24,000 nucleotides of DNA from an uncultured Actinomycetota bacterium (GCA_963740255.1 CAVUDO010000006.1:124158-148157); one strand, 5' to 3'. Positions 2,784 through 22,647 are shown, counted from the first letter of the stretch. Notes: a model not told the origin generated them from the letters alone. Translations and numbers: made by a program.

Positions 2784-2838
2784 TGACGCGGCACCACTCC
2801 CCAATCTTCGACGACGGCACCAGAAGGGGTCCGAAACC

Positions 2839-4629: not shown

Positions 4630-4653
4630 TCCACCGGGAGGCGAGAGGCAATC

Positions 4654-6041: not shown

Positions 6042-6042
6042 G

Positions 6043-9019: not shown

Positions 9020-9531
9020 CGCGCTTCACGGTGGTGCCGGAACGCTCGGTGCTGACCGCCGAGGCCCGTTCGAACGTGCACCCGATCCACGGCGAGGGCC
9101 GCGGGCTGACCGGCTACGTCGACGTCGACGTGGTCGACGGCCGGATCGACCCCGCGTCCAAGCCGACGGTCCACATCGAGCTGCAGACCGAGGACCTGAA
9201 GGCGGAGAACTCGCTCTATGACCGCGAGATCCAGAAGCGGATCAACGCGCGCAGGTACCCGACCATCCGTGGCGAGGTCCGCGAGGTGCGGGAGACCTCG
9301 CCGGGCCAGTACGACGTGGCCGGGGAGCTGTCCTTCAACGGCGCCACCCGGGCTGTGGACGGCACGGCCCGGGTGTCCGTGGTCGACGACCGGACGCTGC
9401 AGGTGGACGGCGATCTCACCGTCGACATCCGCGACTTCGGCCTCGAGCCGCCGAAGATCCTGATGCTCAAGGTGTTCCCCGACGTGGCGATTCACGTGAA
9501 CCTCGTCGCCGAGCGCGAAGGCGGAGACTGA
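9016..9531 (+). CDS. YceI-like (polyisoprenoid/lipid-binding beta-barrel) protein
   Basis: ATG 9016 overlaps the hupD stop (ATGA) and follows a GGAGG SD (9005..9009). The YceI-like layout is: SVLTAEARSNVHPIHGEGRGLTGYVDVD...; ENSLYDREIQKRINARRYPTIRGEV; YDVAGELSFNGATRAV; VDIRDFGLEPP...DVAIHVNLVAE. Confidence 0.8.
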   Translation: MTRFTVVPERSVLTAEARSNVHPIHGEGRGLTGYVDVDVVDGRIDPASKPTVHIELQTEDLKAENSLYDREIQKRINARRYPTIRGEVREVRETSPGQYDVAGELSFNGATRAVDGTARVSVVDDRTLQVDGDLTVDIRDFGLEPPKILMLKVFPDVAIHVNLVAEREGGD

Positions 9532-9588
9532 GCCTGAACCCAGTGAGTTCTGAGCGGGACGATGTACGTGGAAGGAAGTGGTCTTCAA

Positions 9589-9840
9589 ATGGGCGCGCTG
9601 GCAGGTTTCCTGCTCGGCTACTGGCTGGGCACCAAGGCCGGTAAGCACGGCATCGAAGAGATGATCACGGCGGGCAAGCAGATCGCCAAGTCCGACGAAT
9701 TCAAGTCCGCTGTTGCCGGTGCCACCCAGATGGCCGGCAGCATGCTCTCGGCCGGCGCCTCGATGGCGGCGGGCCGGCTCGGCGGCGGAGCGCACGAGGC
9801 ACCGGCAGGGAACGGCCGCGCGAGCATGCGGGCCGTGTAA
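9589..9840 (+). CDS. Small Gly/Ala-rich protein with hydrophobic N-terminus (83 aa), unknown function
   Basis: Track ORF 9562..9840. The first 9 codons have poor third-position G/C, so I start at ATG 9589, with a GGAAGGAAG SD 10 nt upstream. The protein is MGALAGFLLGYWLGTKAGKHGIEEMITAGKQIAKSDEFKSAVAGATQMAGSMLSAGASMAAGRLGGG. The stop is TAA. Confidence 0.55.
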   Translation: MGALAGFLLGYWLGTKAGKHGIEEMITAGKQIAKSDEFKSAVAGATQMAGSMLSAGASMAAGRLGGGAHEAPAGNGRASMRAV

Positions 9841-9859
9841 GTCTTGTTCTCGACGGTGG

Positions 9860-9885
9860 CGGCAGCGGCTGGAAAGTCGCTGCCG
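9860..9885 (+). other. GC-rich stem-loop between the small protein gene and hypC
   Basis: CGGCAGCG (9860..9867) pairs perfectly with CGCTGCCG (9878..9885) around a 10-nt loop GCTGGAAAGT. There is no U-tract, so it is not a canonical intrinsic terminator. Confidence 0.25.
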
Positions 9886-9963
9886 GCGCCGGGCCACCAC
9901 GGGCCACACGGAGCACGCCGGAACCCGGCACCATGCTCGACCTGACGGAAAGGAGACCCCCTC

Positions 9964-10236
9964 ATGTGCCTCGGGATTCCCGGCGAACTCGTCGAGCGGA
10001 GCTTGGAACACAAGGACCTCGCGATGGTGGACGTGGCGGGCGCCAAGCGGATGGTGAACATCGGCCTGCTGGAGGACGAGGAACTCAACGAAGGCGACTG
10101 GGTGCTGATCCACGTCGGATTCGCTCTCTCCAAGATCGACGAGAAAGAGGCGCAGCACGCCTTGAAGATGCTCGAAGGCATGGGCCAGGCCTACACCGAC
10201 GAGCTGATCGCACTGGCCAAGTCCGACATCGTCTAG
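9964..10236 (+). CDS. hypC: Hydrogenase maturation chaperone HypC
   Basis: Begins MCLGIPGELVE, with the essential Cys at position 2, and contains GDWVLIHVGFALSKIDEKEA. An AAAGGAGA SD lies upstream. Confidence 0.95.
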   Translation: MCLGIPGELVERSLEHKDLAMVDVAGAKRMVNIGLLEDEELNEGDWVLIHVGFALSKIDEKEAQHALKMLEGMGQAYTDELIALAKSDIV

Positions 10237-10293
10237 CACCAGACGTTCCAGTCAGTCCGTTGACGGCCCCACACAGCGAGGAGGTGGTCGGGA

Positions 10294-11421
10294 ATGCGTT
10301 TCGTCGATGAGTTCCGCGACGCCGAGAAGGCGCGCGTGCTTTCACACCGGATTGCCGAGCTCTGCGAGCCGGGCCGGCACTACAAGTTCATGGAGGTGTG
10401 CGGCGGGCACACCCACACGATCTACAAGCACGGGCTCGAGGACTACCTGCCCGAGCAGGTGACGCTGGTGCACGGCCCCGGCTGCCCGGTGTGCGTGATC
10501 CCGATGGGCCGGGTGGACGACGCGATCGCCATCGCCGAGGAGCCGGACGTCATCATGACCTCGTTCGGCGACATGATGCGGGTGCCGGGCGGGCGCGGGT
10601 CGTTCTTCGACTCGATGGCCAACGGCGCCGACATCCGGATGGTGTACTCCCCGCTGGACGCCCTGAAGATCGCGCGGAACAACCCGAACAAGAAGGTCGT
10701 CTTCATGGCGATCGGGTTCGAGACCACCGCGCCGTCCACCGCGATGACCGTGATGCGGGCGAAGGCCGAGGGACTGGAGAACTTCTCGATCTTCTGCAAC
10801 CACGTCACGATCATCCCGGCGATCAAGGCCATCCTCGACTCGCCCGACCTGCGGCTGGACGGCTTCCTCGGCCCTGGCCACGTGTCCACCGTGATCGGCT
10901 GCCGGCCGTACGAGTTCATCGCGCGCGACCACGGCAAGCCGCTGGTCACCGCCGGCTTCGAGCCGCTGGACATCCTGCAGTCGGTGTACATGCTGCTCAT
11001 GCAGCTCAAGGAGGGCCGTTCCGAGGTCGAGAACCAGTACGCCCGGGTGGTGCCGTGGGACGGCAACCCCAAGGCGCTCGAGGTGATCGCCGAGGTGATG
11101 GAACTGCGGCCCTACTTCGAGTGGCGCGGGCTCGGCTTCATCTCCCACTCCGCGCTGCGGATGAACGACGCCCACGCGTCCTTCGACGCCGAGAAGATTT
11201 TCTCGGTGCCCGGGGTGCGGGTCGCCGACCCCAAGGCGTGCCAGTGCGGCGAGGTGCTCAAGGGCGTCCTCAAGCCGTGGGAGTGCAAGGTGTTCGGCAC
11301 GGCGTGCACGCCCGAGACCCCGATCGGCACCTGCATGGTGTCCTCGGAGGGCGCGTGCGCCGCGTACTACAACTTCGGCCGCTTCAGCCGGGAGCGCGTC
11401 AAGGAGGCGACCCGCACGTGA
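10294..11421 (+). CDS. hypD: Hydrogenase maturation protein HypD
   Basis: 375 aa with motifs FMEVCGGHTHTIYKHG, HGPGCPVCV and GFETTAP, and a C-terminal Cys cluster CQCGEVLKG...C. A GAGGAGG SD lies upstream. Confidence 0.97.
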   Translation: MRFVDEFRDAEKARVLSHRIAELCEPGRHYKFMEVCGGHTHTIYKHGLEDYLPEQVTLVHGPGCPVCVIPMGRVDDAIAIAEEPDVIMTSFGDMMRVPGGRGSFFDSMANGADIRMVYSPLDALKIARNNPNKKVVFMAIGFETTAPSTAMTVMRAKAEGLENFSIFCNHVTIIPAIKAILDSPDLRLDGFLGPGHVSTVIGCRPYEFIARDHGKPLVTAGFEPLDILQSVYMLLMQLKEGRSEVENQYARVVPWDGNPKALEVIAEVMELRPYFEWRGLGFISHSALRMNDAHASFDAEKIFSVPGVRVADPKACQCGEVLKGVLKPWECKVFGTACTPETPIGTCMVSSEGACAAYYNFGRFSRERVKEATRT

Positions 11422-12656
11422 CGGATCGGGTCGCCCGGACGCCGGTGGATGTCGCGATCGAAAGGCGAGGGACCGTGAACCTCGAGCAGGAGCAGAAGGA
11501 GACCACCGCGGCCTGGGCCGAGGAGGCCGTGACCGAGTCCGAGCAGGACGAGGACGGGCCGCACCACCACATCGGGCAGGAGCACCGCACCCGCGAGCAG
11601 CAGGTGCTCGACCGGATCGACCGGGCCCGCCGGCGCAAGCCCCGGGTCAAGGAAGAACGCATCACGCTGTCGCACGGGGCGGGCGGTAAGGCCACTCACA
11701 CCCTGATCGACGCGATCTTCCTGGAGGCGTTCCGCAACGAGCAGCTGGAGCAGATGGAGGACGGCGCGACGCTCAGCATCGGCGGTGCCAGGTTGGCTTT
11801 CACCACGGACTCCTACGTGGTCTCGCCGCTGTTCTTCCCCGGCGGCGACATCGGCGACCTGGCGGTGAACGGCACGGTCAACGACCTCGCCGTGTGCGGT
11901 GCCCGGCCGCTGTACCTGTCCTGCGGCTTCATCCTGGAGGAGGGGTTCGAGGTCGCGAAGCTGCGGCAGATCACCGACTCGATGGCGGCCGCGGCCAGGG
12001 CGGCCGGAGTGCAGATCGTCACCGGCGACACGAAGGTCGTGCAGCAGGGCAAGGGCGACGGCTGCTACATCAACACCGCCGGCGTCGGCCTGCTCGACCG
12101 GCCGACCCCGCTCAGTGCCGCGTCGGTCAAGCCGGGGGACAAGATCCTGGTGTCGGGTCCGATCGGCGACCACGGCATCACGATCCTGCTGGCCCGGGGC
12201 GAGCTGGACATCGTCGCCGACATCGAGTCCGACACCGCGCCGATGCACGAGCTGATCGCGGGGCTGCTCGACGCGGTGCCCGGTGTGCGGACGCTGCGCG
12301 ACGCGACCCGGGGCGGCGTGGCCACCATCCTCAACGAGGTGGCGGTGGCGTCCCAGGTCGCGGTGGTGGTGGACGAGGCCGCCGTGCCGGTACGCGCCGA
12401 GGTCAACGGCGCCTGCGAACTGCTCGGCATCGACCCGCTCTACGTCGCCTGCGAGGGACGGCTGGTCGCGATCGTGGACGGCTCGATGGTCGACGACGCG
12501 CTGGCCGCGCTCAAGGCGCATCCGCTCGGCGAGGGAGCCGCGGTGATCGGCACGATCAAGGACGACCCGCCCGGGCTGGTGCTGCTCAAGACCACGTTCG
12601 GGGGCACCCGGATCGTCGACATGCTCGTCGGCGACCCGCTACCGCGGATCTGCTGA
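11418..12656 (+). CDS. hypE: Hydrogenase maturation protein HypE (carbamoyl dehydratase) with an unusual N-terminal extension
   Basis: GTG 11418 overlaps the hypD stop (GTGA) and follows an AAGGAGG SD (11401..11407); GTG 11475 and GTG 11604 are alternatives. The conserved core starts at ITLSHGAGGKATHTLIDAIFLEAF (11661) and ends with the canonical PLPRIC C-terminus. Confidence 0.93.
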   Translation: MTDRVARTPVDVAIERRGTVNLEQEQKETTAAWAEEAVTESEQDEDGPHHHIGQEHRTREQQVLDRIDRARRRKPRVKEERITLSHGAGGKATHTLIDAIFLEAFRNEQLEQMEDGATLSIGGARLAFTTDSYVVSPLFFPGGDIGDLAVNGTVNDLAVCGARPLYLSCGFILEEGFEVAKLRQITDSMAAAARAAGVQIVTGDTKVVQQGKGDGCYINTAGVGLLDRPTPLSAASVKPGDKILVSGPIGDHGITILLARGELDIVADIESDTAPMHELIAGLLDAVPGVRTLRDATRGGVATILNEVAVASQVAVVVDEAAVPVRAEVNGACELLGIDPLYVACEGRLVAIVDGSMVDDALAALKAHPLGEGAAVIGTIKDDPPGLVLLKTTFGGTRIVDMLVGDPLPRIC

Positions 12657-12678
12657 GAACCACGAACGGAGGTGTCCG

Positions 12679-13164
12679 ATGTCCTCTACCGAGTTCTTGA
12701 GCACCTACCTCAACGACCACCTCGCCGGGTCATCCGCCGCGGTCGAGATGATCGAGAGAAGCTGTGGGCGCAACGCCGGCACCCCGACCGGGGACTTCCT
12801 GGCGGAGCTGCTGCGCGACGTCGAAGCCGACCGGGCCACGCTGCGGAGCCTGATGAAGCGGCTCGGCGTCGAGGAGAGCATGTTCAAGCAGTTCGCCGGC
12901 GCCGCGCTGGAGAAGGCGAGCCGGCTCAAGCTCGCCGAGCCGATCACCGGCAGCCCGCACCTGACCCGGCTGATGGAGCTGGAGACGGTCTTCCTCGGCG
13001 TCGAGGGCAAGCACGCGTTGTGGCGGACGCTCAAGGCGCTGTCGGACGACGATCCGCGGCTGGCCGAGACCGACCTGGAGGGCCTGATCGACCGGGCCGA
13101 CCACCAGCTCGCCGGCATCGAGAAGCACCGGATCGAAGCCGCCGTCGCCGCTTTCACCGCCTGA
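12679..13164 (+). CDS. Helical protein of unknown function (161 aa), last gene of the + strand operon
   Basis: A GGAGG SD lies 6 nt upstream of the ATG, 22 nt after the hypE stop. The protein is MSSTEFLSTYLNDHLAGSSAAVEMIERSCGRNAGTPTGDFLAELLRDVEADRATLRSLMKRLGV.... It has good coding bias and I recognise no family. Confidence 0.7.
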   Translation: MSSTEFLSTYLNDHLAGSSAAVEMIERSCGRNAGTPTGDFLAELLRDVEADRATLRSLMKRLGVEESMFKQFAGAALEKASRLKLAEPITGSPHLTRLMELETVFLGVEGKHALWRTLKALSDDDPRLAETDLEGLIDRADHQLAGIEKHRIEAAVAAFTA

Positions 13165-13182
13165 TCCACGGCGGCCGGACGA

Positions 13183-14403
13183 TCAGATCTCCAGGGCGCC
13201 GGGCGGGGTGCCGTCGCGCCGGCCGAGCGCGGTCAGGGCGAGCACGCCGTGTCCTTCGAGGCGGGTGTGCCGGCCGACCCCGGTGGGGTCGACCGAGGCG
13301 CGTGCCGCAATGTGCGTGGCGTCGCATCCGTCCAGGGAGCCGTCCTCCGGACACACGGCATAGCCCGCCTCCGCGGAGTGTGGGGTCCGACCTGTTCTTC
13401 TTCGCTGTAGTAGCGGATGACCTCGCCGCGCTCCGCGATGCACCACTCGGTGAACGCCTGGCAGAGGCAGTACCAGTGGGCGGCGCCGAACCGGCGACTC
13501 AGCGCGGCGCAGCTGTCCTGGATCCGGTCGCCGTCGGAGTCCGCCGACGTTTCGTCGTCGGGGAGGTTCTCGAACACCAGCGTCCACCCGTCGAGCACCG
13601 GGCTGACGTACGTCCGGGAACCGGGCCAGGCGTCGAAGCGGAGGTGGTCGTGGAGCCAGGCGTGCGTGCCGAGCCGCATGGTCACGGGCATGGCGTCGGA
13701 CAGGTCGAACGCGTCGAGCACGGCCGCCTGGTCGCCGGTGGGCAGGGCGTACCAGCCGCCGCACACCTGGGTCGGTGCGGGTACCTCGTGAGCCAGCTTG
13801 ACCCGGATCAGCCGTTGGACCACCGCCTGGTCGTACGCGTCGAGCGCGTCCCAGCCGCCGACCTCTGCCAGCGCGGCGAGCACCTCGCGCCGGTGCGGTC
13901 CCGGCGTCCGCCGCACCCCACGGAGCACCGGGATGACACCCGGCCCCATCTGCTTCAGTGCCGATACGGCGCGTACCTGGACCTCGTCGTCGGGGTCGGT
14001 GAGCAGCGGGAGGAGCGCCGACGCGTAGGGCAGCGCATCCGCCTTCCAGCTCTGGAGGGCGCCCGCCGCCCTGTTCCGCACGTTCGCGCTGGGGTGCCCT
14101 AGCAGCGGCAGGTACCGGGCCCGGTCGGAGACCTGGAGGCCCTGGAGCGCGTTGCCCGCATGGACGACCACCGGCCACGAGTCGGTGTTCGCGATGAGGT
14201 CCACCAGGGGTTCGAACGCCGGTTCGCCGATGCGGTGCAGGACGGCCGTCCCGAACCACAACACGTCGTGCTCGGCGTGCTCGTCACCGATCACCGCCAT
14301 CAGCGGTTCCACCGCCGCCTCACCGGCCTGCACCAGCGCGTCGCCCGCAGCCTGCCGCGCCGACGGCTCGGCGAGTTGCCGTACCAGGAAGTCGAGGTCC
14401 ATG
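13183..14403 (-). pseudogene. HEAT-repeat protein with an unknown C-terminal domain; reading frame broken near 13370..13395
   Basis: Starts at ATG 14403 (MDLDFLVRQLAEPSARQAAGDALVQAGEAAVEPLMAVIGDE). HEAT/PBS-lyase-like repeats are present (HPSANVRNRAAGALQS; LLTDPDDEVQVRAVSALKQMG). The frame of track ORF 13233..16775 is convincing down to ...EVIRYYSEEEQVGP. Downstream of that, the frame of track ORF 13183..14259 looks coding (SAEAGYAVCPEDGSLDGCDATHIAARASVDPTGVGRHTRLEGHGVLALTALGRRDG...). Confidence 0.6.
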
Positions 14404-14579
14404 GCCGCGAAGAGTACCGCTGCAAACAGCTGGGCGAGGGCGTGGTCGGGGTCGTAGGATCTGCGGCATGACCTGGCGACATTGATCCAGAGCGAGAGGT
14501 CGCGGCGCGGCACGTTGCCGCGGACCACCGGGAGAGCCCGACCGTCCCGAGTCCGCCATCGTCCCCGTGGGAAGACCTC
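14404..14579. promoter_or_regulatory. Divergent intergenic region between the HEAT-repeat gene and the MFS gene
   Basis: A 176-bp gap between two divergently oriented starts. No specific motif was assigned. Confidence 0.3.
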
Positions 14580-15890
14580 ATGATCCTTTCTGTATTCCGT
14601 GTCCCGGACACGCGCATCAAGCGGCTGACAGCCACGATCTACGCCTACGCGTTCTTCGACGAGCTGATCCTGCTCTATCCGGTGTACACGCTGCTGCTCG
14701 CCGACAACGGGCTGTCCGTTGCCGAGATCTCGTCGCTGTTCATCCTCTGGTCGCTGACCTCGATCGTGCTGGAGGTCCCCTCCGGGGCGCTGGCCGATGC
14801 CGTCTCGCGGCGCCGGGTGCTGGCCGTCGCGCCGTTGCTCGCGGCGGTCGGATTCGCGATGTGGCCGGTCACGTCGTCGTACTGGGTGTTCGCACTGGGC
14901 TTCGTCCTCTGGGGAGTGCAGGGCGCGCTGCAGTCCGGTGCGTTCGAGGCGCTCGTGTACGAGGAGCTCGACCGGCTGGGAGCGGCCGACCGGTACGCCC
15001 GCATCATGGGCCGCAGCCGCGCGTGGGGTGTGGCGGCGGTGATCGTGGCTCTCACGGCCGGAGGTCCGGTGCTCGCCCTCGGCGGCTACGCCGCGGTGGG
15101 CGTGGCGAGCGTGCTCGCGTGCGTGGTCACGGCGGCTGTCGCGCTGGCGTTGCCCGAGCATCGTCGGCGGCGTTCGGCGGCGCTGGTCGGGTCGCCTTCG
15201 GCGGGGGAGCCGGTGGCGACGTCGGCTGGCGTCGGGCCGGCCGCTGCCGCGACCGGTGTCCTGCCGGTGACCGCACCTCCGGACGACGAGGTGGAGCTCG
15301 GGTACCTCGCCACGCTGCGGGCCGGCCTGGCCGAGGCACGCCACAGCCGCTCGGTGCGGTGGGCCCTGGTGGTGGTGCCCGCGGTGACCGCGATCTGGGG
15401 TTCGCTGGAGGAGTACGTGCCCCTGCTGGCCGTGGAGACCGGTGTGCCGAATCACCTGGCACCGTTCATGTTGCTGCTGGTCTGGGGCGGCGTGACGATC
15501 GGCGGCCTGCTGGCCGGGGTCGGGCAGCGGATGAACCCGACGACGCTGGCCGGCGCGCTGGCGCTCGGCGCGTTGGCGATGGCGGCCGGTGCGCTGAGTG
15601 GGGTGCCGGCCGGGTTCGTGCTGATCGCGGTGGCGTTCTGCGTGTTCCAGGTGGTCAGCGTCGTGGCCGACGCGCGGCTCCAGGAGCGGATCACCGGGCC
15701 GAGCCGGGCCACGGTGACCTCGCTGGCCGGGCTCGGCACCGAGCTGGCCGCGGTGGCTGTCTACGGCGCCTACGCGGCGGCGTCGGCGATGAGCCACAGT
15801 ACGGTCTTCGCGCTGTTCGCCGGGGTGTACGTGGTGATCGCGGTCGGCCTCGCGGCCGGTGGCCGGGGTCCCCGCGTCGCGGGGGTGTGA
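14580..15890 (+). CDS. MFS-family transporter
   Basis: 436 aa with about 12 hydrophobic segments. An MFS loop motif GALADAVSRRRVL follows TM2. There is a central cytoplasmic loop (PEHRRRRSAALVGSPSAGEP...). A GGAAGA SD lies 5 nt upstream. Confidence 0.85.
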   Translation: MILSVFRVPDTRIKRLTATIYAYAFFDELILLYPVYTLLLADNGLSVAEISSLFILWSLTSIVLEVPSGALADAVSRRRVLAVAPLLAAVGFAMWPVTSSYWVFALGFVLWGVQGALQSGAFEALVYEELDRLGAADRYARIMGRSRAWGVAAVIVALTAGGPVLALGGYAAVGVASVLACVVTAAVALALPEHRRRRSAALVGSPSAGEPVATSAGVGPAAAATGVLPVTAPPDDEVELGYLATLRAGLAEARHSRSVRWALVVVPAVTAIWGSLEEYVPLLAVETGVPNHLAPFMLLLVWGGVTIGGLLAGVGQRMNPTTLAGALALGALAMAAGALSGVPAGFVLIAVAFCVFQVVSVVADARLQERITGPSRATVTSLAGLGTELAAVAVYGAYAAASAMSHSTVFALFAGVYVVIAVGLAAGGRGPRVAGV

Positions 15891-15999
15891 ACCCCTGGCC
15901 AGACCACCGGCCGGCTGGAATCCTTGCCTCGGTGCCGGGAGGTCGGCACGCGGGAACGGCCCGCGGGAGTACGGCCGCCCGGGTCGGAGAGGTGCGTTC

Positions 16000-16266
16000 G
16001 TGGAGTCTCCGTTGCAGGTCTTCGAACGGTTGCGCCCGCGCGGGCTGTACCGGGGCGTGGGTGCCGGTGCGCTGGTGGTGGACGTCGACCAGGACGGTCG
16101 GATCGACCGGGTCTGGCTGGCGCCCGACATCGTGCCGTACATGCAGGTCGAGGAGCTGGAAAGGGCCGTCGTCGAGGCACACGCGCAGGCCCGGGCGCAG
16201 GCGTTCGACGCCGCGCAGGAGGCGTGGACGATCGCGACGGACGGACACCGGGAGCGGGTGGAATGA
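16000..16266 (+). CDS. YbaB/EbfC-like small protein (88 aa)
   Basis: GTG 16000 lies 7 nt after a GGAGAGG SD (15986..15992), inside track ORF 15859..16266. The YbaB-like core is GVGAGALVVDVDQDGRIDRVWLAPDIVPYMQVEELERAVVEAHAQARAQA. Confidence 0.6.
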   Translation: MESPLQVFERLRPRGLYRGVGAGALVVDVDQDGRIDRVWLAPDIVPYMQVEELERAVVEAHAQARAQAFDAAQEAWTIATDGHRERVE

Positions 16267-16913
16267 GCGCCTACGACGAGTACGCGCTGCGACGGGAGGC
16301 GGCGATGCTCAGCCGGCAGCTGGCGGATCGGCTGGTCGCCGAACGGGTGCACGCCCAGGCGCCGGGCGGGGGCATACGGGTGACGTTGCGGCTGGACGGC
16401 GGCCTGGAGGAGGTGGGCATGGACCGGGAGATGCTGCGGGCACAGGGCGCCGAGCGGGTCGGGGAGTTGCTGACGGAGGCAATCCGGGCCGCGGAGGAGC
16501 AGATCGAGCCGCGCACCCGTGCCCTGATCGCCGGCTGCACGCTTCTCGACCAGTCGATCGGTCAGCTCGGCAGCTCCGGCGAGGACGCGGTGAGCGCGCC
16601 CGGGGGGTTCACGGTTCTCATCGACGCGCTGGTCGCCAGCAGCAAGAAGTTCGCCGACGAAGCCACGGAGCTGGCCACCCAGCAGTCGGCGGCGAACGGC
16701 CGGAACCTGAGTCGGGAGATCTTCAGCGATCCCGGCCACGCGCTCGCCGAGGCCTACCGGCAGGCGCAGCAGCACGTCACGGACCAGGTCGCTGATCTGC
16801 AGGCACGGGTGAAGGACACCGCGGAAGGACTCAAGACCGCCGCTGACCTGTACCGCCTCGACGACCAGACCGCCGCGGACATCGTCAGCAACAGCGTCTT
16901 CCGTGAGCGTTAA
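16263..16913 (+). CDS. Two-domain protein: N-terminal YbaB-like domain plus C-terminal helical EspC/WXG-type (type VII secretion-associated) domain
   Basis: ATG 16263 overlaps the upstream stop (ATGA). N-terminal half: GGGIRVTLRLDGGLEEVGMDREMLRAQGAERVGELLTEAIRAAEEQ. C-terminal half is helical and ends in LKTAADLYRLDDQTAADIV, resembling the A..Y...D motif of EspC-like proteins (from memory). Confidence 0.7.
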   Translation: MSAYDEYALRREAAMLSRQLADRLVAERVHAQAPGGGIRVTLRLDGGLEEVGMDREMLRAQGAERVGELLTEAIRAAEEQIEPRTRALIAGCTLLDQSIGQLGSSGEDAVSAPGGFTVLIDALVASSKKFADEATELATQQSAANGRNLSREIFSDPGHALAEAYRQAQQHVTDQVADLQARVKDTAEGLKTAADLYRLDDQTAADIVSNSVFRER

Positions 16914-16915
16914 CC

Positions 16916-17929
16916 ATGGGTTCCGGGGTGCCAGGAGGGTTCGAAGTCATCGCGGGTTGGGCGTCGTTCTTCGGTATCGGCATGGACGACACCCGCCAAC
17001 AGCTCGTCGGGATCATGAAAGGAGACCAGCCGACACTGCTCCAGGCCGACGGCGCGGAATGGGCAAAGATCTCGGCGGCGCTCGAACAGACCGGCACCGA
17101 CCTGGAGAACGCGAAGAACGCACTCCAGCCTCCCGTGTGGGACGGCGAGGCGGCCAAGGCGTTCACCCGCAGGTGGTCGGCGCTCAACAGATCCCTCACG
17201 CCGTTGGTCCCTCTCGCGAGCAAGCTCGCCACCACCCTGCCCCCCGCCGCCGAGGCCATCGGGAAAATCAAGGACTCCGTCACCACCCGCACCACCCTGA
17301 CCGAGGCGATCCTCAACGCACTCGAACTGGCCAGCGGCGGCCTCCGGGTGCTCCCGACGACCTTGGTCGTGGGAGCCCAGGTGGTGACGAGGTACCGGAC
17401 CGACACGGCGCTGGACTGGCTCGCCCTCGAATCGAGCCTCAGCGGGCTGGCCGACCAGATCTACGCCTCGGGCGGGCCGCGCCAGGCCGCCACCAGGGCC
17501 GCCCAGGTTCCCGGCGGGTGGCCGCCGCCGGCGGTCACCGGGCAGGACCTGGACCACGTCACGAAAGGCACGTTCAACGCGGACGGCGTGCCTGTCGGCT
17601 GGCATCACCGGCAGGACGGCGTGGACCCGCCGGGTCGCCGTCCCGGCGTCCTGGTCACCCCGCCGGACGCCGACGGCGTCTACACCGCTCGTGGCCTGGA
17701 GTTCGAGCGGCCCGACGGAACCTGGGCAGTGAAGAAGTACGACACGACGTTCTTCCCCGACAGTTGGTCGGAGCCGCAGGTGAAGGCGGCGGTGCAGGAG
17801 GCGTGGAACGATCCCTCCGGAACCCGGAACTCCTCGGGCCGGGCCTGGACCGGCCAGGGCGGGGGCATCCAGATCAGCGGTTACTACGATCCGACGACGG
17901 GCGAGTTCCGCACCGCGTTCCCGTCCTGA
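16916..17929 (+). CDS. Polymorphic toxin: WXG100-like N-terminal domain fused to a bacterial EndoU-type ribonuclease C-terminal domain
   Basis: ATG lies 2 nt after the upstream TAA. The helical N-terminus carries a W-x-G motif (PPVWDGEAAKAFTRRW). The C-terminal ~120 aa read HVTKGTFNADGVPVGWHHRQDG...KKYDTTFFPDSWSEPQVKAAVQEAW...GIQISGYYDPTTGEFRTAFPS. This matches my recollection of the EndoU_bacteria pattern: GGHH-type His pair, K..FP..WS, and a TAYP-like C-terminus. Confidence 0.8.
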   Translation: MGSGVPGGFEVIAGWASFFGIGMDDTRQQLVGIMKGDQPTLLQADGAEWAKISAALEQTGTDLENAKNALQPPVWDGEAAKAFTRRWSALNRSLTPLVPLASKLATTLPPAAEAIGKIKDSVTTRTTLTEAILNALELASGGLRVLPTTLVVGAQVVTRYRTDTALDWLALESSLSGLADQIYASGGPRQAATRAAQVPGGWPPPAVTGQDLDHVTKGTFNADGVPVGWHHRQDGVDPPGRRPGVLVTPPDADGVYTARGLEFERPDGTWAVKKYDTTFFPDSWSEPQVKAAVQEAWNDPSGTRNSSGRAWTGQGGGIQISGYYDPTTGEFRTAFPS

Positions 17930-17946
17930 GACCAGGGAGAGTCGTC

Positions 17947-18294
17947 GTGGAGTTCACGTGGAGGCCGAACCGGGACGTCGCCATCGACGGCGCCCCGGAC
18001 GATGCCGTGCTCACCTCCTTCCTCTGGGGTGACGTGGGGCGGACGCCGTCGTCGGTCGAGTACGTGATGCGGACGATCGAGGAACAGCGCGACGACCCCG
18101 ACGACGACGAATGGATGACGGGCAACGGCTACTCGCTCAGAGTCCGGGACGGCGACGTCCTGATCCGGAGCAACTTCGACCAGTTCCCCGAGACGACCTA
18201 TCCGGTCGAGCGGGTGCTCGGCGCGCTGCGGGAGTTCCGGGACTGGCTGCGCGACAACCCGCGGCCGCCGGTGGACACGGCGTCAGGAGGGTGA
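17947..18294 (+). CDS. Putative cognate immunity protein (115 aa), family not recognised
   Basis: GTG 17947 lies 6 nt after a GGGAGAG SD and 17 nt after the toxin stop; it is the only convincingly coding part of track ORF 16903..18294. The protein is acidic: VEFTWRPNRDVAIDGAPDDAVLTSFLWGDVGRTPSSVEYVMRTIEEQRDDPDDDEWMTGNGYSLRV.... The call rests on position and size only. Confidence 0.55.
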   Translation: MEFTWRPNRDVAIDGAPDDAVLTSFLWGDVGRTPSSVEYVMRTIEEQRDDPDDDEWMTGNGYSLRVRDGDVLIRSNFDQFPETTYPVERVLGALREFRDWLRDNPRPPVDTASGG

Positions 18295-20607
18295 GGCCGG
18301 GCCGGCGGCTGCCCGGTCGCGGGCTCCGGCGACGGCGGCCTGGCCGAGGCTGATGCCGCCGTCGTTGGGCGGCACCCGGGAGTGGACGAGCACCCGGAAG
18401 CCCCGTGCGGTGAGCAGGGTGGCCAGGCGTTCGAGCAGGGTCAGGTTCTGGAACACGCCGCCGGACAGCGCGACCGTGGCCAGGCCGGTGTCGGCGCGGA
18501 CGGCGTCCACCGCGTCGGCCAGTACGGCGGCGAACCCGTTGTGGAACCGGGCTGCGACGATTCCCACGGCCACGCCGGCCGAGACGTCGTCGACCACCGC
18601 CCGGATCAGGTCGCTGCCCAGGATCACCCCGGCGTCGGAGACCCGGGCCGGGTAGCCGCCCCGTTCGTCCGGGTCGACGCGCTGCTCGAATTCGATGGCC
18701 GCCTGGCCCTCGTAGTGCACGGCGTCCCGGATGCCGGCGAGCGCGGCCACCGCGTCGAACAGCCGGCCCGCACTGGTCGTCACCGGGGCGCTCGTCCCGG
18801 TGCGGGCCAGGCTGGTGACCAGCGGCCACTGGCCGGAGTGGCGCGCCGCCACGGCCAGGCCGGCCGGGACCTCTTCGCCGTACGCGTGGAACAGGTGCGA
18901 CGCGGCCATCCGCCACGGCTCGCGGATCGCGCTGGCGCCGCCGGGCAGCCGCACCGGTTCGAGATGGGCGACCCGTTCGTAGCCGGCCAGGTCGGCCACC
19001 AGGATCTCGCCGCCCCAGAGCGTGCCGTCGTCGCCGTAGCCCGTGCCGTCGCAGGCGACCCCGATCACCGGCCCTGCCTCGCCGTTGTCGGCCAGGCAGG
19101 AGGCGATGTGCGCGTGGTGGTGCTGGACGCCGACCAGATCGACGCCTGCCGCGCCGGCGCCGTCCGCGGCGTGATCGCCGTACGTGTCCAGGGCGTACTT
19201 GGTGGACAGGTACTCCGGGTGCAGGTCGTAGGCGACCACCTCGGGGGTCACGTCGAACAGCCGCTGGAAGTGCTCGATGCCGGTGGTGAACGAACGCAGC
19301 GTCTCGAAGTTCTCCAGGTCGCCGATGTGGTGGGACAGGAACGCGCGTTCGCCCTTGGCCAGGCAGAAGGTGTTCTTCAGCTCGGCACCGCAGGCCAGCA
19401 CCGGCCGCGGGAAGCGCCACGGCAGCCGCAGCGGGGCGGGCGCGTAGCCGCGGGACCTGCGCACCGGCAGCTCGCGCCCGTCGACCACCCGCACCACGGA
19501 GTCGTCCGTGCGCATGTGGATGGGCCGGTCGTGCACGAGGAAGCCGTCCGCGATCGGCACCAGCCGTTCCAGCGCGTCGGCGTCGAGGTAGGCGATGGGT
19601 TCGTCCGAGACGTTGCCGCTGGTCAGCACGAACGGCCCGGGCAGTGCCGCGGCGAGCAGATGGTGCAGCGGCGTGTAGGGCAGCATCACGCCGAGGAACC
19701 GGTTGGCGACCGTGACGCTCGGCGCCGGGCCGGCGTCGTCGCGGCGGCGGAGCAGCACGATGGGCCGGCGGCGCGAGGCGAGCACCCGTACCTCGGCCGG
19801 CGTCACCTCGCACCACGCGCGGACGGCCGCCAGGTCCCGGGCCATCACGGCGAACGGCTTGTCCTCGCGGTGCTTGCGCGCCCGCAGCGTGGCCACCGCA
19901 TGCTCCGAGGCCGCGTCCACCGCGAGGTGGTACCCGCCCAGCCCCTTGACGGCCAGCACTCTGCCGGCCGCCAGCCAGGACGCGGCCACCGCGACGGGGT
20001 CGCCGTCCACGGCCCGCCCGGAGGCGTCGAGGAACCGCAGCGTCGGCCCGCAGGCCGGACAGCACACCGGCTGGGCGTGGAACCGCCGGTCGCCCGGGTC
20101 GTGGTACTCGGCCGCGCACTCCGCGCACATCGCGAAGCCGGACATCGTGGTCGCCGCCCGGTCGTAGGGCACCGACTGGACGATCGTGAACCGCGGGCCG
20201 CAGTTCGTGCAGTTGGTGAACGGGTAGGCGTACCGGCGGTCGTCCGGGTCGGCGATCTCGGCCAGGCAGTCGTCGCAGGTCGCGGTGTCGGCCGAGACCA
20301 GGGCGTCCCGCGGCCCGGCGGACGAGCTGGTGACGATGACGAAGTCACGGTCGCCGTTGGGAACGGCCGGCGCGGCGACGACCCGTTCGACCGAGGCGAG
20401 CACCGGCGGGCGCAGCCGCAGCGCCGCGACGAACGCGTCGAGGGCCGTCGGGTCGCCCTCGGCCTCGATGAACACCCCGGCCTCGTCGTTGCCGACGAAG
20501 CCGCCGAGCCCGTACTCGCCGGCCAGGGCGTGGACGAACGGCCGGAAGCCCACGCCCTGCACGATGCCCTCGACCCGGATCCGGGAGCGCACCCGCGCGT
20601 CGGTCAC
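18283..20607 (-). CDS. hypF: Carbamoyltransferase HypF
   Basis: 774 aa with an acylphosphatase domain (RIRVEGIVQGVGFRPFVHALA), two zinc-finger pairs (CDDCLAEIADPDDRRYAYPFTNCTNCGPRFT; CAECAAEYHDPGDRRFHAQPVCCPACGP), a YrdC-like domain and a Kae1-like C-terminal domain. Confidence 0.97.
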   Translation of the reverse strand: MTDARVRSRIRVEGIVQGVGFRPFVHALAGEYGLGGFVGNDEAGVFIEAEGDPTALDAFVAALRLRPPVLASVERVVAAPAVPNGDRDFVIVTSSSAGPRDALVSADTATCDDCLAEIADPDDRRYAYPFTNCTNCGPRFTIVQSVPYDRAATTMSGFAMCAECAAEYHDPGDRRFHAQPVCCPACGPTLRFLDASGRAVDGDPVAVAASWLAAGRVLAVKGLGGYHLAVDAASEHAVATLRARKHREDKPFAVMARDLAAVRAWCEVTPAEVRVLASRRRPIVLLRRRDDAGPAPSVTVANRFLGVMLPYTPLHHLLAAALPGPFVLTSGNVSDEPIAYLDADALERLVPIADGFLVHDRPIHMRTDDSVVRVVDGRELPVRRSRGYAPAPLRLPWRFPRPVLACGAELKNTFCLAKGERAFLSHHIGDLENFETLRSFTTGIEHFQRLFDVTPEVVAYDLHPEYLSTKYALDTYGDHAADGAGAAGVDLVGVQHHHAHIASCLADNGEAGPVIGVACDGTGYGDDGTLWGGEILVADLAGYERVAHLEPVRLPGGASAIREPWRMAASHLFHAYGEEVPAGLAVAARHSGQWPLVTSLARTGTSAPVTTSAGRLFDAVAALAGIRDAVHYEGQAAIEFEQRVDPDERGGYPARVSDAGVILGSDLIRAVVDDVSAGVAVGIVAARFHNGFAAVLADAVDAVRADTGLATVALSGGVFQNLTLLERLATLLTARGFRVLVHSRVPPNDGGISLGQAAVAGARDRAAAGPASPS

Positions 20608-20617
20608 GCGGTCATGC

Positions 20618-21298
20618 CTAGGCGCCGAGGGCCTGCTGGGTGAGCTCCCACAGCACGTCGTACGTGGTGGCCTGCGTCTCCTGGATGCGGTGCACCGACA
20701 CCGACGGCACCGAGAAGAGGTAGTCGATCGTGCCGGCCTCGGCCATCTTGCCGCCGTCGTAGCCGGCGAAGCCCACCGTGACCATGCCGATCCGCTGGGC
20801 CTCCTCGAAGGCGCGGAGCACGTTGGCCGAACCGCCGCTGGTGGACAGGCCGACCGCGATGTCGCCCGGCTTGGCCTTCGCGGCGAGCGGACGGGCGAAG
20901 ATCACCTCGAAGCCGACGTCGTTGGAGAGTGCGGTGAGCACCGCGACGTCGGTGGTCAGCGCCGCGGCCGGCAGCGGACGGGCACCGGGGCCGGGGTTGA
21001 GGAAGAGCTGGGCCAGCGCCTCGGCGTCCGTGCTGCTGCCGCCGTTGCCGAACGTGTAGAGCCACCCGCCCGCGGCGAACGACTCGGCCATGGCCGTCGC
21101 GCACGCGGCGAGCTGCCCGCCGTACCTCTCCACCATCTTCTCGCGCACGGCGACGATCTCCGCCGCCTTCTCGGTGGTGGAGCGCTGGACCTCCGCCAGC
21201 ACGGCGTCGAGGTCGGACGCACCGGAATACAGGAACGGGTAGAGCGACTCGACACCCCCGCCACGACCCCCGCGACCACGGGGTGCGGGTTCGGTCAT
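20618..21298 (-). CDS. SIS-domain protein (GmhA/DiaA-like), hydrogenase-cluster paralogue B
   Basis: Track ORF 20618..21505. I start at ATG 21298, which forms an ATGA overlap with the upstream gene's stop. SIS motifs present: TFGNGGSSTDAEALAQ, GDIAVGLSTSGGSANVLRA and TVGFAGYDGG. Confidence 0.85.
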   Translation of the reverse strand: MTEPAPRGRGGRGGGVESLYPFLYSGASDLDAVLAEVQRSTTEKAAEIVAVREKMVERYGGQLAACATAMAESFAAGGWLYTFGNGGSSTDAEALAQLFLNPGPGARPLPAAALTTDVAVLTALSNDVGFEVIFARPLAAKAKPGDIAVGLSTSGGSANVLRAFEEAQRIGMVTVGFAGYDGGKMAEAGTIDYLFSVPSVSVHRIQETQATTYDVLWELTQQALGA

Positions 21299-21597
21299 GC
21301 AGGAGCCTCTTCGGGCCGGATCACGGCGATCGCCTCCTTGGCGTGCACCAAGACTACGTCGCCGACGACGGCGTCCACCAGCGCGACGCTGACCTCGTCG
21401 GTGCCCTCGCCGGTGTCGACCAGCGCGAGTCCGAACTCCTTCAGCTCGGTGATCGTCACGGCCACGGCCTCGTCCGAGCAGGTGATGCAGTGGTCGCCGT
21501 AGCACTCGGCCGGACCGGGCGGGCTCACCGCCACCATGGGCGCCGGCCCGCCGGTGAACCCTTCGGGGCGCGGCCCGATCGTCACGTCGTCGCTCAT
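21295..21597 (-). CDS. Atypical HypC/HupF-like protein with internal CxxC instead of an N-terminal Cys
   Basis: 100 aa. After a 30-residue Pro/Gly-rich leader comes DHCITCSDEAVAVTITELKEFGLALVDTGEGTDEVSVALVDAVVGDVVLVHAKEAIAVI. The segment GDVVLVHAKEAIAVI aligns by eye with HypC's GxWVLVHVGFAxxxI. Confidence 0.7.
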   Translation of the reverse strand: MSDDVTIGPRPEGFTGGPAPMVAVSPPGPAECYGDHCITCSDEAVAVTITELKEFGLALVDTGEGTDEVSVALVDAVVGDVVLVHAKEAIAVIRPEEAPA

Positions 21598-21619
21598 CGG
21601 CCCGCCCCGCTTCGCTCGC

Positions 21620-22237
21620 TCATCGGATGACCCCCGGGTCGAGTACGCCCGGTTGTTCGAAGAAGACGTGCACCAGCTCCCAGAGCAGGTGGTAGGTGGT
21701 CACGTGGATTTCCTTGACCACCCGCGGGTCGTCGGAACGGGCGACGAAGGCGTGGCCGGCCAGGTTGTCACGGGCGATGGCGCCGCCGTCCCCGCCGGTC
21801 AGCGCGACCGTCAGCAGACCCCGCTCGCGGGCCACCTCCAGCGCGCGGGCCACGTTGCGGCAGTTCCCGTCCGGCGAGATGCCCAGCGCGATGTCGTCCG
21901 GGTGGCCCATCAGCGCCAGCTGCGTCGCGAAGGTCTCGTCCATCCCGGCCGACGCGGCGATGCCGGTGGCGGTCGAGGCGTCGTTGGCCAGCGAGATCGC
22001 CGGCAGGGCGCGCTTGCCGACGATGACCGGGTGGACGAACTCCACCACCACGTGCTGGGCGTCCGTCGCGCAGCCGCCGTTGCCGAAGGTGACGAGCTTG
22101 CCGCCGCGGTGGAAGCGCAGCGCGATGTCGTAGCAGGCGCGGCCGACCCGTTCGGCGTCGGCGGCCAGCGCGTTGCCGGGAGCGATCCGGCGGGCGAACG
22201 CCTCCGCGGCGCGCGCCGCCGTCACCTCGACCGTCAT
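21620..22237 (-). CDS. SIS-domain protein (GmhA/DiaA-like), hydrogenase-cluster paralogue A
   Basis: Track ORF 21620..22426. I start at ATG 22237, which forms an ATGA overlap with the padR stop. The protein contains TFGNGGCATDAQHVVVEF. The second SIS motif is degenerate (ALGISPDGNCRNVARA instead of S-x-S-G-x-S). Confidence 0.85.
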   Translation of the reverse strand: MTVEVTAARAAEAFARRIAPGNALAADAERVGRACYDIALRFHRGGKLVTFGNGGCATDAQHVVVEFVHPVIVGKRALPAISLANDASTATGIAASAGMDETFATQLALMGHPDDIALGISPDGNCRNVARALEVARERGLLTVALTGGDGGAIARDNLAGHAFVARSDDPRVVKEIHVTTYHLLWELVHVFFEQPGVLDPGVIR

Positions 22238-22647
22238 GCCTGTTCGCGCTCCTCCAGCTCTGGTTCGGCCACATCGGCACCGGACACGCCCGCGTACCGC
22301 TTGAGGAAGTCCTCGATCATGTCGCGGGTGGCCTCCAGGGCGCAGGCCCGGCCTTTCAGGCTCTCCAGGCCCCGCGCGGTGAGGTGGTACGTCCGCCGTG
22401 CCGGCCCGGCGGTGGACATCCGCCACGACGACACGACGAGCCCCTGGTGCTCCAGTGCCCGCAGGGCGCGGTACACCCCACCGGCGTCGATCTCGGATCC
22501 GGCGAAGGCGCGGAGTCGGTCGACGAGGTCATAGCCGTGGTCCGGCCGCTCGTAGATGAGCAGCAGGAGACACGGCTTGAGAAAATCTCGTGGCTCGTAC
22601 TCGAGCATCGACACGCCTTTGTGTGGACGCGACAGGGGGAGATCCAT
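22234..22647 (-). CDS. PadR-family transcriptional regulator
   Basis: Winged-helix core LKPCLLLLIYERPDHGYDLVDRLRAF...GGVYRALRALEHQGLVVSSW...RRTYHLTARG. Start ATG 22647 follows a GAGGA SD 4 nt upstream; ATG 22608 (AAAGG SD) is an alternative. The upstream part of track ORF 22234..22755 is not needed. Confidence 0.85.
   Translation of the reverse strand: MDLPLSRPHKGVSMLEYEPRDFLKPCLLLLIYERPDHGYDLVDRLRAFAGSEIDAGGVYRALRALEHQGLVVSSWRMSTAGPARRTYHLTARGLESLKGRACALEATRDMIEDFLKRYAGVSGADVAEPELEEREQA

Follow-up and report, generated by a model that had tools for sequence, protein, structure and literature searches.

A predicted type VII secretion-type EndoU toxin-immunity cassette with two YbaB-fold proteins in an uncultured Actinomycetota bacterium

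Gene layout and the toxin gene

The window analysed here is a stretch of 24,000 nucleotides from an uncultured Actinomycetota bacterium (GCA_963740255.1, CAVUDO010000006.1:124158-148157), in which four genes on the plus strand, called g1 to g4, are predicted to form a type VII secretion system (T7SS)-style toxin-immunity cassette. Two proteins of the YbaB fold, g1 and g2, precede the putative toxin g3, in which helices of the WXG100_2 family are joined to an EndoU ribonuclease (RNase) domain, and a small acidic protein, g4, follows (Table 1). A preliminary description of this locus had reported four tightly packed genes, and the coordinates and spacings that it gave match the sequence. The g1 stop codon and the g2 start codon overlap as ATGA at positions 16263-16266, g3 begins 2 nt past the TAA of g2, and g4 begins after a gap of 17 nt. 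With a G+C content at third codon positions (GC3) of 0.88-0.90 (0.88 for g1), all four open reading frames (ORFs) are typical of real genes in DNA of about 70% G+C, the value for the window. Two longer ORFs were discarded as high-GC artefacts, one of 463 amino acids (aa) at 16903-18294 on the plus strand, for which homologues exist only for the last 115 codons, that is, for g4, and one of 1180 aa at 13233-16775 on the minus strand. A scan of positions 15700-18500 for consensus promoters and terminators found none, a result that is uninformative at 70% G+C. Searches with the hidden Markov models (HMMs) of Pfam and NCBIfam, as the preliminary description had proposed, recovered every domain assignment that it made, with the EspC match falling slightly under its cut-off.

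Table 1. Features of the g1-g4 locus, with positions counted from the first nucleotide of the window, and genes of the related five-gene cassette of Micromonosporaceae and Glycomyces
Feature	Residues	Position (nt)	Strand	Remarks
g1, 87-aa YbaB-fold protein		16003-16266	+	GTG start; GGAGAGG at 15987-15993, 9 nt upstream
g2, 216-aa fusion of YbaB fold and helical EspC/PE-like tail		16263-16913	+	TAA stop
g2, YbaB-fold domain	19-90	16317-16532	+	Pfam match
g2, helical EspC/PE-like tail	117-207	16611-16883	+	Near-threshold Pfam match
g2, YxxxD candidate T7SS export motif (Y197-R-L-D-D201)	197-201	16851-16865	+	Regular-expression search of g2
g3, 337-aa putative toxin		16916-17929	+	N-terminal WXG100_2/CpnT-N-terminal-like helices, Pro/Gly-rich linker, C-terminal EndoU RNase
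g3, WXG100_2 core	46-143	17051-17344	+	W75-D-G77 at 17138-17146
g3, EndoU RNase domain	211-336	17546-17923	+	H214, H230, K273, T277/T278, T333
g4, 115-aa acidic protein, predicted immunity		17947-18294	+	GTG start; GGGAGAG at 17935-17941
Cassette gene 1				YbaB-fold protein, 138-142 aa
Cassette gene 2				Helical protein, 107-111 aa, with sub-threshold PE and WXG100 matches
Cassette gene 3				WXG100_2 protein, 164 aa
Cassette gene 4				Separate EndoU protein, 165-169 aa
Cassette gene 5				g4-family protein

The C-terminal domain of g3 matches the Pfam family EndoU_bacteria (PF14436) with 64.5 bits (cut-off 25.3, E=1.6e-17) over profile positions 4-127 of 129, and AlphaFold2 models residues 205-337 with a predicted local distance difference test score (pLDDT) above 90. 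EndoU toxins share the signature H, H, K, [SNT], [SNT] (PMC3482391; PMC9086364), with which H214, H230 and K273 align; all three residues are conserved at 90% or above in an alignment of 21 relatives. The TFFPD motif, which holds T277/T278, is kept in most of these relatives, with P281 invariant and D282 conserved in at least 90%, and T333 shows full invariance only within the five closest sequences. Moreover, the human EndoU motif FEHVFSGEV..GFHN aligns with DHVTKGTF..GWHH of g3 with both histidines matched, and the spacing of 16 between the two histidines equals that of H162 and H178 in XendoU. The sole fold match in the PDB at E<=0.001 is 5hkq_A, the EndoU toxin CdiA-CT (E=6.3e-4, probability 1.00). 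On the combined grounds of profile, residues and modelled fold, we assign the C-terminal domain of g3 to the bacterial EndoU toxin family. The peptides cited in the preliminary description, VWDGEAAKAF (residues 74-83) in the N-terminal domain and GWHH (228-231, containing H230), KKYDTTFFPDSWSEPQV and GEFRTAFPS, are all present; its assignment of an EndoU RNase is upheld, and the catalytic histidine and lysine positions, a misalignment of which it had listed as a possible refutation, align as expected.

An HMMER search with g3 that covered 1.84 billion representative proteins returned 422 relatives, and the best 150 of the 422 match the EndoU part only (residues ~190-336), the top one with 46% identity. 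At 90% identity g3 is a singleton, and g2 and g4 likewise form singleton clusters without names. When g3 and g2 were used in word-indexed homologue searches, the query itself was the sole match, and metagenome scans with g3 alone and with an alignment of g4-type proteins yielded no relatives.

The N-terminal part of g3 exceeds the cut-off of Pfam WXG100_2 (PF25547; 31.5 bits versus 27) and contains W75 and G77, in agreement with the helical W-x-G domain of the preliminary description. Sub-threshold Pfam matches to WXG100 (22.2 versus 27.3 bits), PPE and EspA_EspE accompany this assignment, and the NCBIfam WXG100_ESAT6 model gives 18.4 bits, under its cut-off of 44.85. The g3 N-terminus also aligns in colinear fashion with WXG100_2 proteins of 164 aa from Actinoplanes and Glycomyces, and W49, W75, G77, A82, F83 and W87 are invariant in the alignment. 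These proteins bear the UniRef name 'Outer membrane channel protein CpnT-like N-terminal domain', which connects the N-terminal part of g3 with CpnT, a toxin of Mycobacterium tuberculosis. The best sequence match of the WXG100_2 profile in the PDB is a mycobacterial WXG100 protein in 3q4h, a weak one (E=0.074), and in the AlphaFold2 model the WxG lies between helices 63-69 and 78-94, in a region of low confidence (pLDDT 50-64). Relatives at the level of BLAST were not found for the g3 N-terminus among EndoU toxins, nor was any protein that joins a g3-type N-terminus to another toxin domain, and tblastn searches of the PLSDB plasmids with the g3 N-terminus and g2 returned nothing.

A WxG on one chain and a YxxxD/E on another make up a composite T7SS signal (PMC13444075), and secretion of CpnT requires WXG100 partners and ESX systems (PMC7810871; PMC13444075). 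The YxxxD of g2 stands 16 residues before the C-terminus, and the PE-like partners of the cassettes described below have [YH]xxx[DE] at the equivalent place. The T7SS assignment is strengthened because the YxxxD in the g2 tail complements the WxG of g3, which we predict to be exported by a T7SS.

The downstream gene and the EndoU immunity family

The g4 protein has an isoelectric point (pI) of 4.3 and matches no Pfam family above threshold. An HMM made from the genes downstream of EndoU in related loci, with g4 excluded, scores g4 at 28 bits compared to 6.8 bits for the best of 1000 shuffles, and g4 is the sole match of this HMM in the window. When every ORF of 28 related loci (~230 kb; loci carry L numbers below) was scanned, every member of the g4 family had an EndoU ORF on its own strand 12-40 nt upstream, and none occurred elsewhere. 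The family occurs in seven actinobacterial genera (Actinoplanes, Paractinoplanes, Winogradskya, Micromonospora, Catenuloplanes, Longispora and Glycomyces), in the planctomycete loci L001 (Gemmataceae) and L018 (Pirellulaceae), and in the loci of the closest EndoU relatives, once in L027 and twice in L028. Homology together with conserved adjacency to EndoU in unrelated lineages supports the prediction that g4 is the cognate immunity protein, a role that we regard as all but certain. The preliminary description had placed a small acidic ORF with its own Shine-Dalgarno sequence in the role of immunity gene, and this proposal gains from the comparison across lineages.

In L027 (5617-6363) a g4-type immunity domain is fused to a MafI2 immunity domain, and L028 (5596-6613) has the order toxin, immunity gene, orphan EndoU tip, immunity gene. 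The carriers of the EndoU relatives vary, including T7SS_signal and PT-TG proteins and proteins of 900-2000 aa, which implies that toxin and immunity protein travel together, as they do in polymorphic toxin systems. The window locus has the layout of such systems, namely an N-terminal trafficking domain, a C-terminal toxin and an immunity gene directly downstream. No orphan modules or alternative C-termini were found at this locus, however, where hypF lies directly past g4 on the opposite strand. The earlier label of a polymorphic toxin cassette can be retained for the pair, which sits on other trafficking domains elsewhere, but the locus itself is not visibly polymorphic.

The g4 family is at most distantly related to YacL/UPF0231, to judge from its profile scores. 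The match of g4 to PF06062 (13.4 bits) stays below the cut-off of 25, four of eight family members show sub-threshold to weak matches (best E=2.4e-5), and a planctomycete member carries the name YacL in IMG. AlphaFold2 models g4 with a pLDDT of 81.5 and a predicted TM-score of 0.77, and the order of its secondary structure is beta2-alpha2-beta3-alpha. A Foldseek comparison of this model with the PDB gave no match at E<=0.001, the top entry being a PUR-alpha repeat (E=0.034), and 5HKQ, of which chain B is the immunity protein CdiI, is absent from the best 50 fold matches. For EndoU, the immunity families given by Zhang et al. (2012) are Imm-SUKH, Imm-SuFu and Imm28 (PMC3482391), and the g4 family is additional to these three.

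Two further observations concern members of this family and their neighbours. The immunity proteins of the five-gene cassettes (for example L004 6988-7431) have a conserved C-terminal tail, YRPDLPxWQ...WEExWGRxHPYRGRLF, which neither g4 nor the members of the family in planctomycetes and in L027/L028 possess. In L028, a 190-aa protein without an assigned family (3432-4004) is encoded between a small helical partner and the T7SS_signal-EndoU toxin; standing where the YbaB gene or the partner gene stands in WXG100_2 systems, it may be a different type of accessory protein or chaperone.

YbaB-fold proteins and a related five-gene cassette

Both upstream proteins pass the cut-off of Pfam YbaB_DNA_bd (PF02575; 25.5 bits), g1 with 28.6 bits over residues 19-79 and g2 with 29.0 bits over residues 19-90, and the YbaB-like core claimed for each of them is borne out. 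The NCBIfam equivalog for the nucleoid protein YbaB/EbfC (TIGR00103) is reached by neither (15 bits for g2 compared to 49.45; no match for g1), which sets g1 and g2 within the YbaB fold but apart from the housekeeping nucleoid protein. Both are acidic (pI 4.8-4.9), and pairwise similarity between them is not detectable. The second protein had been credited with an EspC/WXG-like tail. A helical tail is indeed present, and its match to T7SS_ESX_EspC (PF10824) extends over profile positions 6-97 of 100 with E=1.2e-4; the Pfam score, however, is marginally under the cut-off. A fair reading of this match is one of resemblance to the helical hairpin of EspC, short of established membership in the EspC family.

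YbaB-like neighbours of such toxins had been described as having no defined role, a statement that does not hold, given that the YbaB-fold proteins EspD, EspH and EspL of ESX-1 have been proposed or shown to stabilise the substrates EspA/C and EspE/F (PMC6107294, PMC6319747). In addition, an operon of the SigM/ESX-4 regulon in Mycobacterium abscessus encodes a PE-like protein, an NlpC/P60 effector and two YbaB-like proteins, on which its authors do not comment (PMC13491425). This operon is the nearest published parallel to the arrangement with two YbaB proteins.

A genome scan identified Actinoplanes-type loci that align to g3 residues 20-329, and these loci hold a cassette of five genes (Table 1). 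The same cassette, with Pfam labels, is present in Micromonospora, Catenuloplanes and Longispora, in each case in a neighbourhood of its own, and also in Glycomyces (L017). A YbaB gene lies ahead of every WXG100_2-EndoU cassette found and ahead of no EndoU locus that lacks WXG100_2. The window and the cassette are alike in the order of YbaB protein, helical partner with [YH]xxx[DE], WXG100_2 domain, EndoU domain and g4-family protein, and homology to cassette proteins is demonstrable for g4 and for both the N-terminus and the EndoU domain of g3. They differ in that the cassette has one YbaB gene where the window has two, and in that the helical partner and EndoU are separate genes of the cassette. 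The window can be described as the parts of the cassette with two fusions, YbaB with partner in g2 and WXG100_2 with EndoU in g3, and an extra YbaB protein, g1. By the logic of Rosetta-stone fusions, contacts between YbaB and partner and between carrier and toxin are predicted for the unfused systems. Orthology of g1 and g2 with the YbaB protein and partner of the cassette was considered and dropped, their scores being at the level of shuffles; this part of the parallel therefore relies on membership at the level of Pfam and on gene order.

The cassette loci (L004-L011, L017 and L020-L026; for example L004 5213-7431) carry the same EndoU throughout, which is unusual for polymorphic toxins. In most of them the WXG100_2 stop codon is followed one to three codons on, in frame, by the EndoU start (L004 5974-6969, L023 4001-5008, L025 4001-4999, L017 5338-6357), whereas in Micromonospora (L020 4001-5012) the two genes are separated by 7 nt and out of frame. 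Programmed read-through of the WXG100_2 stop was rejected as an explanation, on account of the out-of-frame spacer in Micromonospora and the ATG that each EndoU ORF has of its own, and we read the two ORFs, from their arrangement, as coupled genes. The stand-alone WXG100_2 protein has a hydrophobic stretch of transmembrane grade at residues ~88-130 (L004 5974-6465), and in the split systems this carrier may be membrane-active. Three related loci look decayed: a deletion in L019 (5860-6342) has brought the N-terminal part of EndoU together with the immunity protein's C-terminal tail, L010 (5499-6342) encodes WXG100_2 and EndoU in two overlapping frames that differ, and the WXG100_2 gene of L015 (1814-2927) is in frame over its last part only.

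Proposed function, alternatives and comparison with known systems

The locus very probably encodes a toxin-immunity pair with an export handle of the T7SS type, and we consider it reasonably likely that g1 to g4 constitute a single operon serving an exported antibacterial RNase together with its antidote. The EndoU domain of g3 would act as a metal-independent endoribonuclease with a His-His-Lys active site and, by analogy with CdiA-CT(STEC_O31), would most likely cut the anticodon loops of transfer RNAs (tRNAs), killing cells that lack the antidote. In the producer and its siblings, g4 would serve as a cytoplasmic immunity protein that binds and blocks the RNase. The WXG100_2 helices of g3 and the helical tail of g2 might pair as a four-helix bundle like those of PE/PPE or EspA/EspC, with the WxG of the one and the YxxxD of the other presenting a composite signal to an ESX/type VII ATPase whose gene would lie elsewhere in the genome. 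Through its YbaB-fold domain, g2 could dimerise with g1, giving a chaperone similar to EspD, EspH or EspL that keeps the effector stable and competent for export in the cytoplasm; for this wiring of the YbaB proteins as chaperones the chances seem to us evenly balanced. The fusion of YbaB and partner in g2 and the strict association of YbaB genes with WXG100_2 carriers lend the chaperone role indirect support. The analyses above show the domain identities, the fold and active-site residues of EndoU, the strict adjacency of g4 to EndoU genes and its homology to their neighbours, and the occurrence of the five parts in other Actinomycetota. We infer that g3 acts as an RNase and on which substrate, that g4 neutralises it, that export depends on a T7SS, and that g1 pairs with g2 in a chaperone role.

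Several results weigh against this proposal. The search of the coding ORFs in the 24-kb window revealed no eccC or other T7SS core gene, a point that the preliminary description had also made. The g2 tail scores 22.9 bits with the EspC model, 0.6 under the cut-off of 23.5, and in comparisons of g1 and g2 with the YbaB protein and PE-like partner of the cassette, HMM and profile-profile scores are no better than those of shuffles. AlphaFold2 models the N-terminal domain of g3 with a pLDDT of only 34-64, too low to place the WxG firmly at the turn of a helix-turn-helix, and the fold match of the EndoU domain to 5HKQ is moderate (target TM-score 0.47, 16% identity). Moreover, the stand-alone WXG100_2 proteins of the cassette have a stretch of transmembrane grade (maximum Kyte-Doolittle hydropathy 2.46 over 19 residues), whereas g3 has no such segment (maximum 1.21 over 19 residues). 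Finally, the cassette loci are orthologues of one another and amount to roughly one independent observation.

The alternative that fares best concerns the YbaB-fold proteins, which might be small DNA-binding regulators of the nucleoid-associated type and not chaperones, governing transcription from the cassette or from ESX genes in the manner of classical YbaB/EbfC proteins, with toxin, partner and immunity gene read as above. Both g1 and g2 do pass the Pfam threshold for YbaB/EbfC DNA-binding proteins, but the nucleoid equivalog of NCBIfam is not reached by either, and fusion to a helical tail resembling a secretion partner, as in g2, would be odd for a regulator. DNA-binding YbaB proteins depend on basic helices, whereas g1 and g2 are acidic. 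A transcriptional role was the first to be considered for the YbaB-like EspH by the authors who characterised it; EspH, however, bound EspE directly in the cytosol, which they took as chaperone activity (PMC6107294). On this evidence we regard regulation by g1 and g2 as unlikely.

The whole cassette might instead work inside the producer, as a module of the toxin-antitoxin, stress-response or phage-response kind, in which g4 restrains EndoU until it is released and the WXG protein and its helpers regulate the toxin or tether it to the membrane. The lack of secretion machinery in the window fits this possibility, and so does the EndoU of the five-gene cassette, which has no export domain and is made as a protein of its own beside a WXG100_2 protein with a segment of transmembrane grade. 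That one and the same EndoU is kept across the whole family, and that the window locus has no orphan modules, is likewise atypical for toxins in an arms race. Searches of g1 to g4 with PADLOC and PHROGs models gave no matches, however, and the combination of a WxG and YxxxD pair with a PE/EspC-like partner is a hallmark of T7SS substrates. Elsewhere, the EndoU-immunity pair is found on T7SS_signal, PT-TG and ~2000-aa carriers, as expected for exported polymorphic toxins, and the layout of L028 is the classic one of toxin, immunity, orphan tip and immunity. We therefore hold a purely intracellular role to be quite improbable.

The genomic setting bears on whether the cassette is still functional. 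It sits between hypE and a convergent hypF, in a 5.6-kb stretch (12649-18294) that also holds an unassigned 171-aa ORF, a gene for a HEAT-repeat protein and a major facilitator superfamily transporter gene. The position of this stretch suggests an island inserted in the hyp cluster, and its G+C content is only slightly lower than that of the surroundings (0.69-0.70 versus 0.72-0.75). A defunct remnant, no longer expressed or functional within the island, would accord with the singleton status of the locus, which has no close relatives in any collection searched, and with the visible decay of related loci (the L019 deletion, the L010 frameshift), but four intact ORFs with high GC3, spacing suited to translational coupling, Shine-Dalgarno sequences and EndoU active-site residues that are all kept make it very improbable.

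The rest of the window (1722-12656 and 18283-22258) is a cluster for a [NiFe]-hydrogenase and its hyp maturation proteins. It comprises small and large subunits, NifU-like, DUF5947 and DUF6084 proteins, the protease HycI, HypC, HypD and HypE, while the minus strand encodes HypF, a pair of SIS-domain proteins and another HypC-like protein. The window's HypC shares a cluster, at 90% identity or above, with a protein from a Cryptosporangiaceae metagenome-assembled genome, and from this one cluster Cryptosporangiaceae is a tentative guess at the family of the host. Two ORFs on the plus strand within or beside the hydrogenase cluster, at 6675-8321 (549 aa, GC3 0.95) and 12649-13161 (171 aa, GC3 0.93), are clearly coding and match no Pfam family at E<=0.1. 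The HEAT-repeat protein (13236-14567, minus strand) has a C-terminal region of ~220 aa without a Pfam family, and its GC3-rich coding signal stops near 13356 although the ORF extends to 13233, so that the gene may in fact have another 3' end. Polymorphic toxin systems include immunity proteins with HEAT repeats (Zhang et al. 2012). We considered this neighbour as an immunity protein of the Imm-HEAT type and set it aside, with a C-terminal domain that has no family, a gene on the other strand and no link to the cassette.

A broader proposal can be entertained, although we hold it to be tentative and on balance doubtful. YbaB-fold proteins would form a general and dedicated class of chaperones or adaptors for WXG100_2 (CpnT-N-terminal-type) T7SS effectors across Actinomycetota and would not be peculiar to the ESX-1 of mycobacteria, and the fusions would record the wiring, of YbaB dimer to partner and of carrier to RNase. 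In the unfused cassettes, free EndoU would ride non-covalently on a membrane-active carrier, and g4 would found an EndoU immunity family related to the RNA-polymerase-associated YacL. Were this true, the ride of EndoU on a membrane-active WXG100_2 carrier would suggest a route by which T7SS nucleases enter the target cytoplasm.

For the chaperoning of antibacterial T7SS effectors and the entry of payloads that act in the cytoplasm of target cells, the cassette and its five-gene relatives offer a compact and testable system. Evidence for YbaB-fold proteins as secretion chaperones has so far come from ESX-1 virulence loci only, and the cassette links such proteins to a nuclease toxin outside Mycobacterium, with two fusions that predict which components touch. 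It also led to an uncharacterised EndoU immunity family that spans two phyla, Actinomycetota and Planctomycetes. Confirmation of the chaperone role would change many annotations in Actinomycetota that now read 'YbaB/EbfC nucleoid-associated protein' or 'hypothetical protein'; should that role fail, what is left is a correctly recognised but ordinary polymorphic-toxin module.

Among characterised systems, the esxF-esxE-cpnT-ift locus of M. tuberculosis has small helical partner genes upstream, a toxin whose N-terminus belongs to Pfam WXG100_2, a C-terminal toxin domain (CpnT/TNT) and then an immunity gene (IFT), as does the window. CpnT differs in its payload, a nicotinamide adenine dinucleotide (NAD+) glycohydrolase instead of an EndoU RNase, and its locus has two WXG100 partners where the window has a YbaB-fused EspC/PE-like tail and a second YbaB protein. 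Unlike CpnT, g3 has no transmembrane-grade segment, and its host is probably a non-mycolate actinobacterium. The ESX-1 modules espA-espC-espD and espE-espF-espH, together with EspL, resemble the window in the roles of their parts, combining a large WXG-type substrate, a small EspC-type partner and a YbaB-fold stabiliser (PMC6107294, PMC6319747). In the window, however, the substrate carries a nuclease of the antibacterial type and is followed by an immunity gene, and the YbaB fold occurs in two proteins, in one of them as a fusion with the partner. In EspH the YbaB-like region comprises residues 65-135 (PMC6107294), whereas that of g2 is N-terminal.

The first experimental demonstration of an antibacterial T7SS toxin in Actinomycetota came in 2026 with EatA of ESX-4 (PMC13444075). 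The EatA/Tap locus of M. abscessus and 'eat-like' loci share with the window an N-terminal helical bundle, helical partners upstream and an immunity gene downstream (PMC13444075; bioRxiv 10.64898/2026.08.24.746431), and helical-bundle toxin loci of this build, nuclease payloads included, are widespread in Actinomycetota (PMC13444075). EatA and the window cassette are also alike in their predicted role, interbacterial competition via T7SSa. EatA, however, attacks arabinogalactan outside the cell, whereas the payload of g3 is predicted to be an RNase with a cytoplasmic target, and the window partner is fused to a YbaB domain, while the word YbaB is absent from the EatA paper (PMC13444075). The LXG toxins of T7SSb with Lap/DUF partners (for example TelA-LapA3-LapA4, EsaD) have a helical N-terminus, upstream helical partners that confer export competence and downstream immunity (PMC10801868, PMC9600955, PMC10653861). 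They differ from the window in belonging to Bacillota and T7SSb, in having LXG and not WXG100_2 domains and in having no known YbaB-fold component.

With respect to the toxin domain, the counterpart of known structure is CdiA-CT/CdiI of Escherichia coli STEC_O31 (5HKQ), whose toxin has the His-His-Lys active site seen in g3 and is a metal-independent anticodon nuclease for tRNA(Glu) (PMC9086364). It is, however, the same 16% identical entry discussed above, and it is delivered by the type V route of contact-dependent inhibition (CDI) in a Gram-negative host. CdiI, for its part, differs from g4 in the order of its secondary structure and is not matched by it in Foldseek. WXG-headed EndoU toxins of Actinobacteria, catalogued in 2012 (Zhang et al.; PMC3482391), YbaB-like ESX-1 chaperones (2018) and antibacterial T7SS toxins in Actinomycetota (2026) were already known. 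What is new here is the YbaB pair and fusion in a toxin locus of the antibacterial type, the fused version of the five-gene cassette and the YacL-like immunity family.

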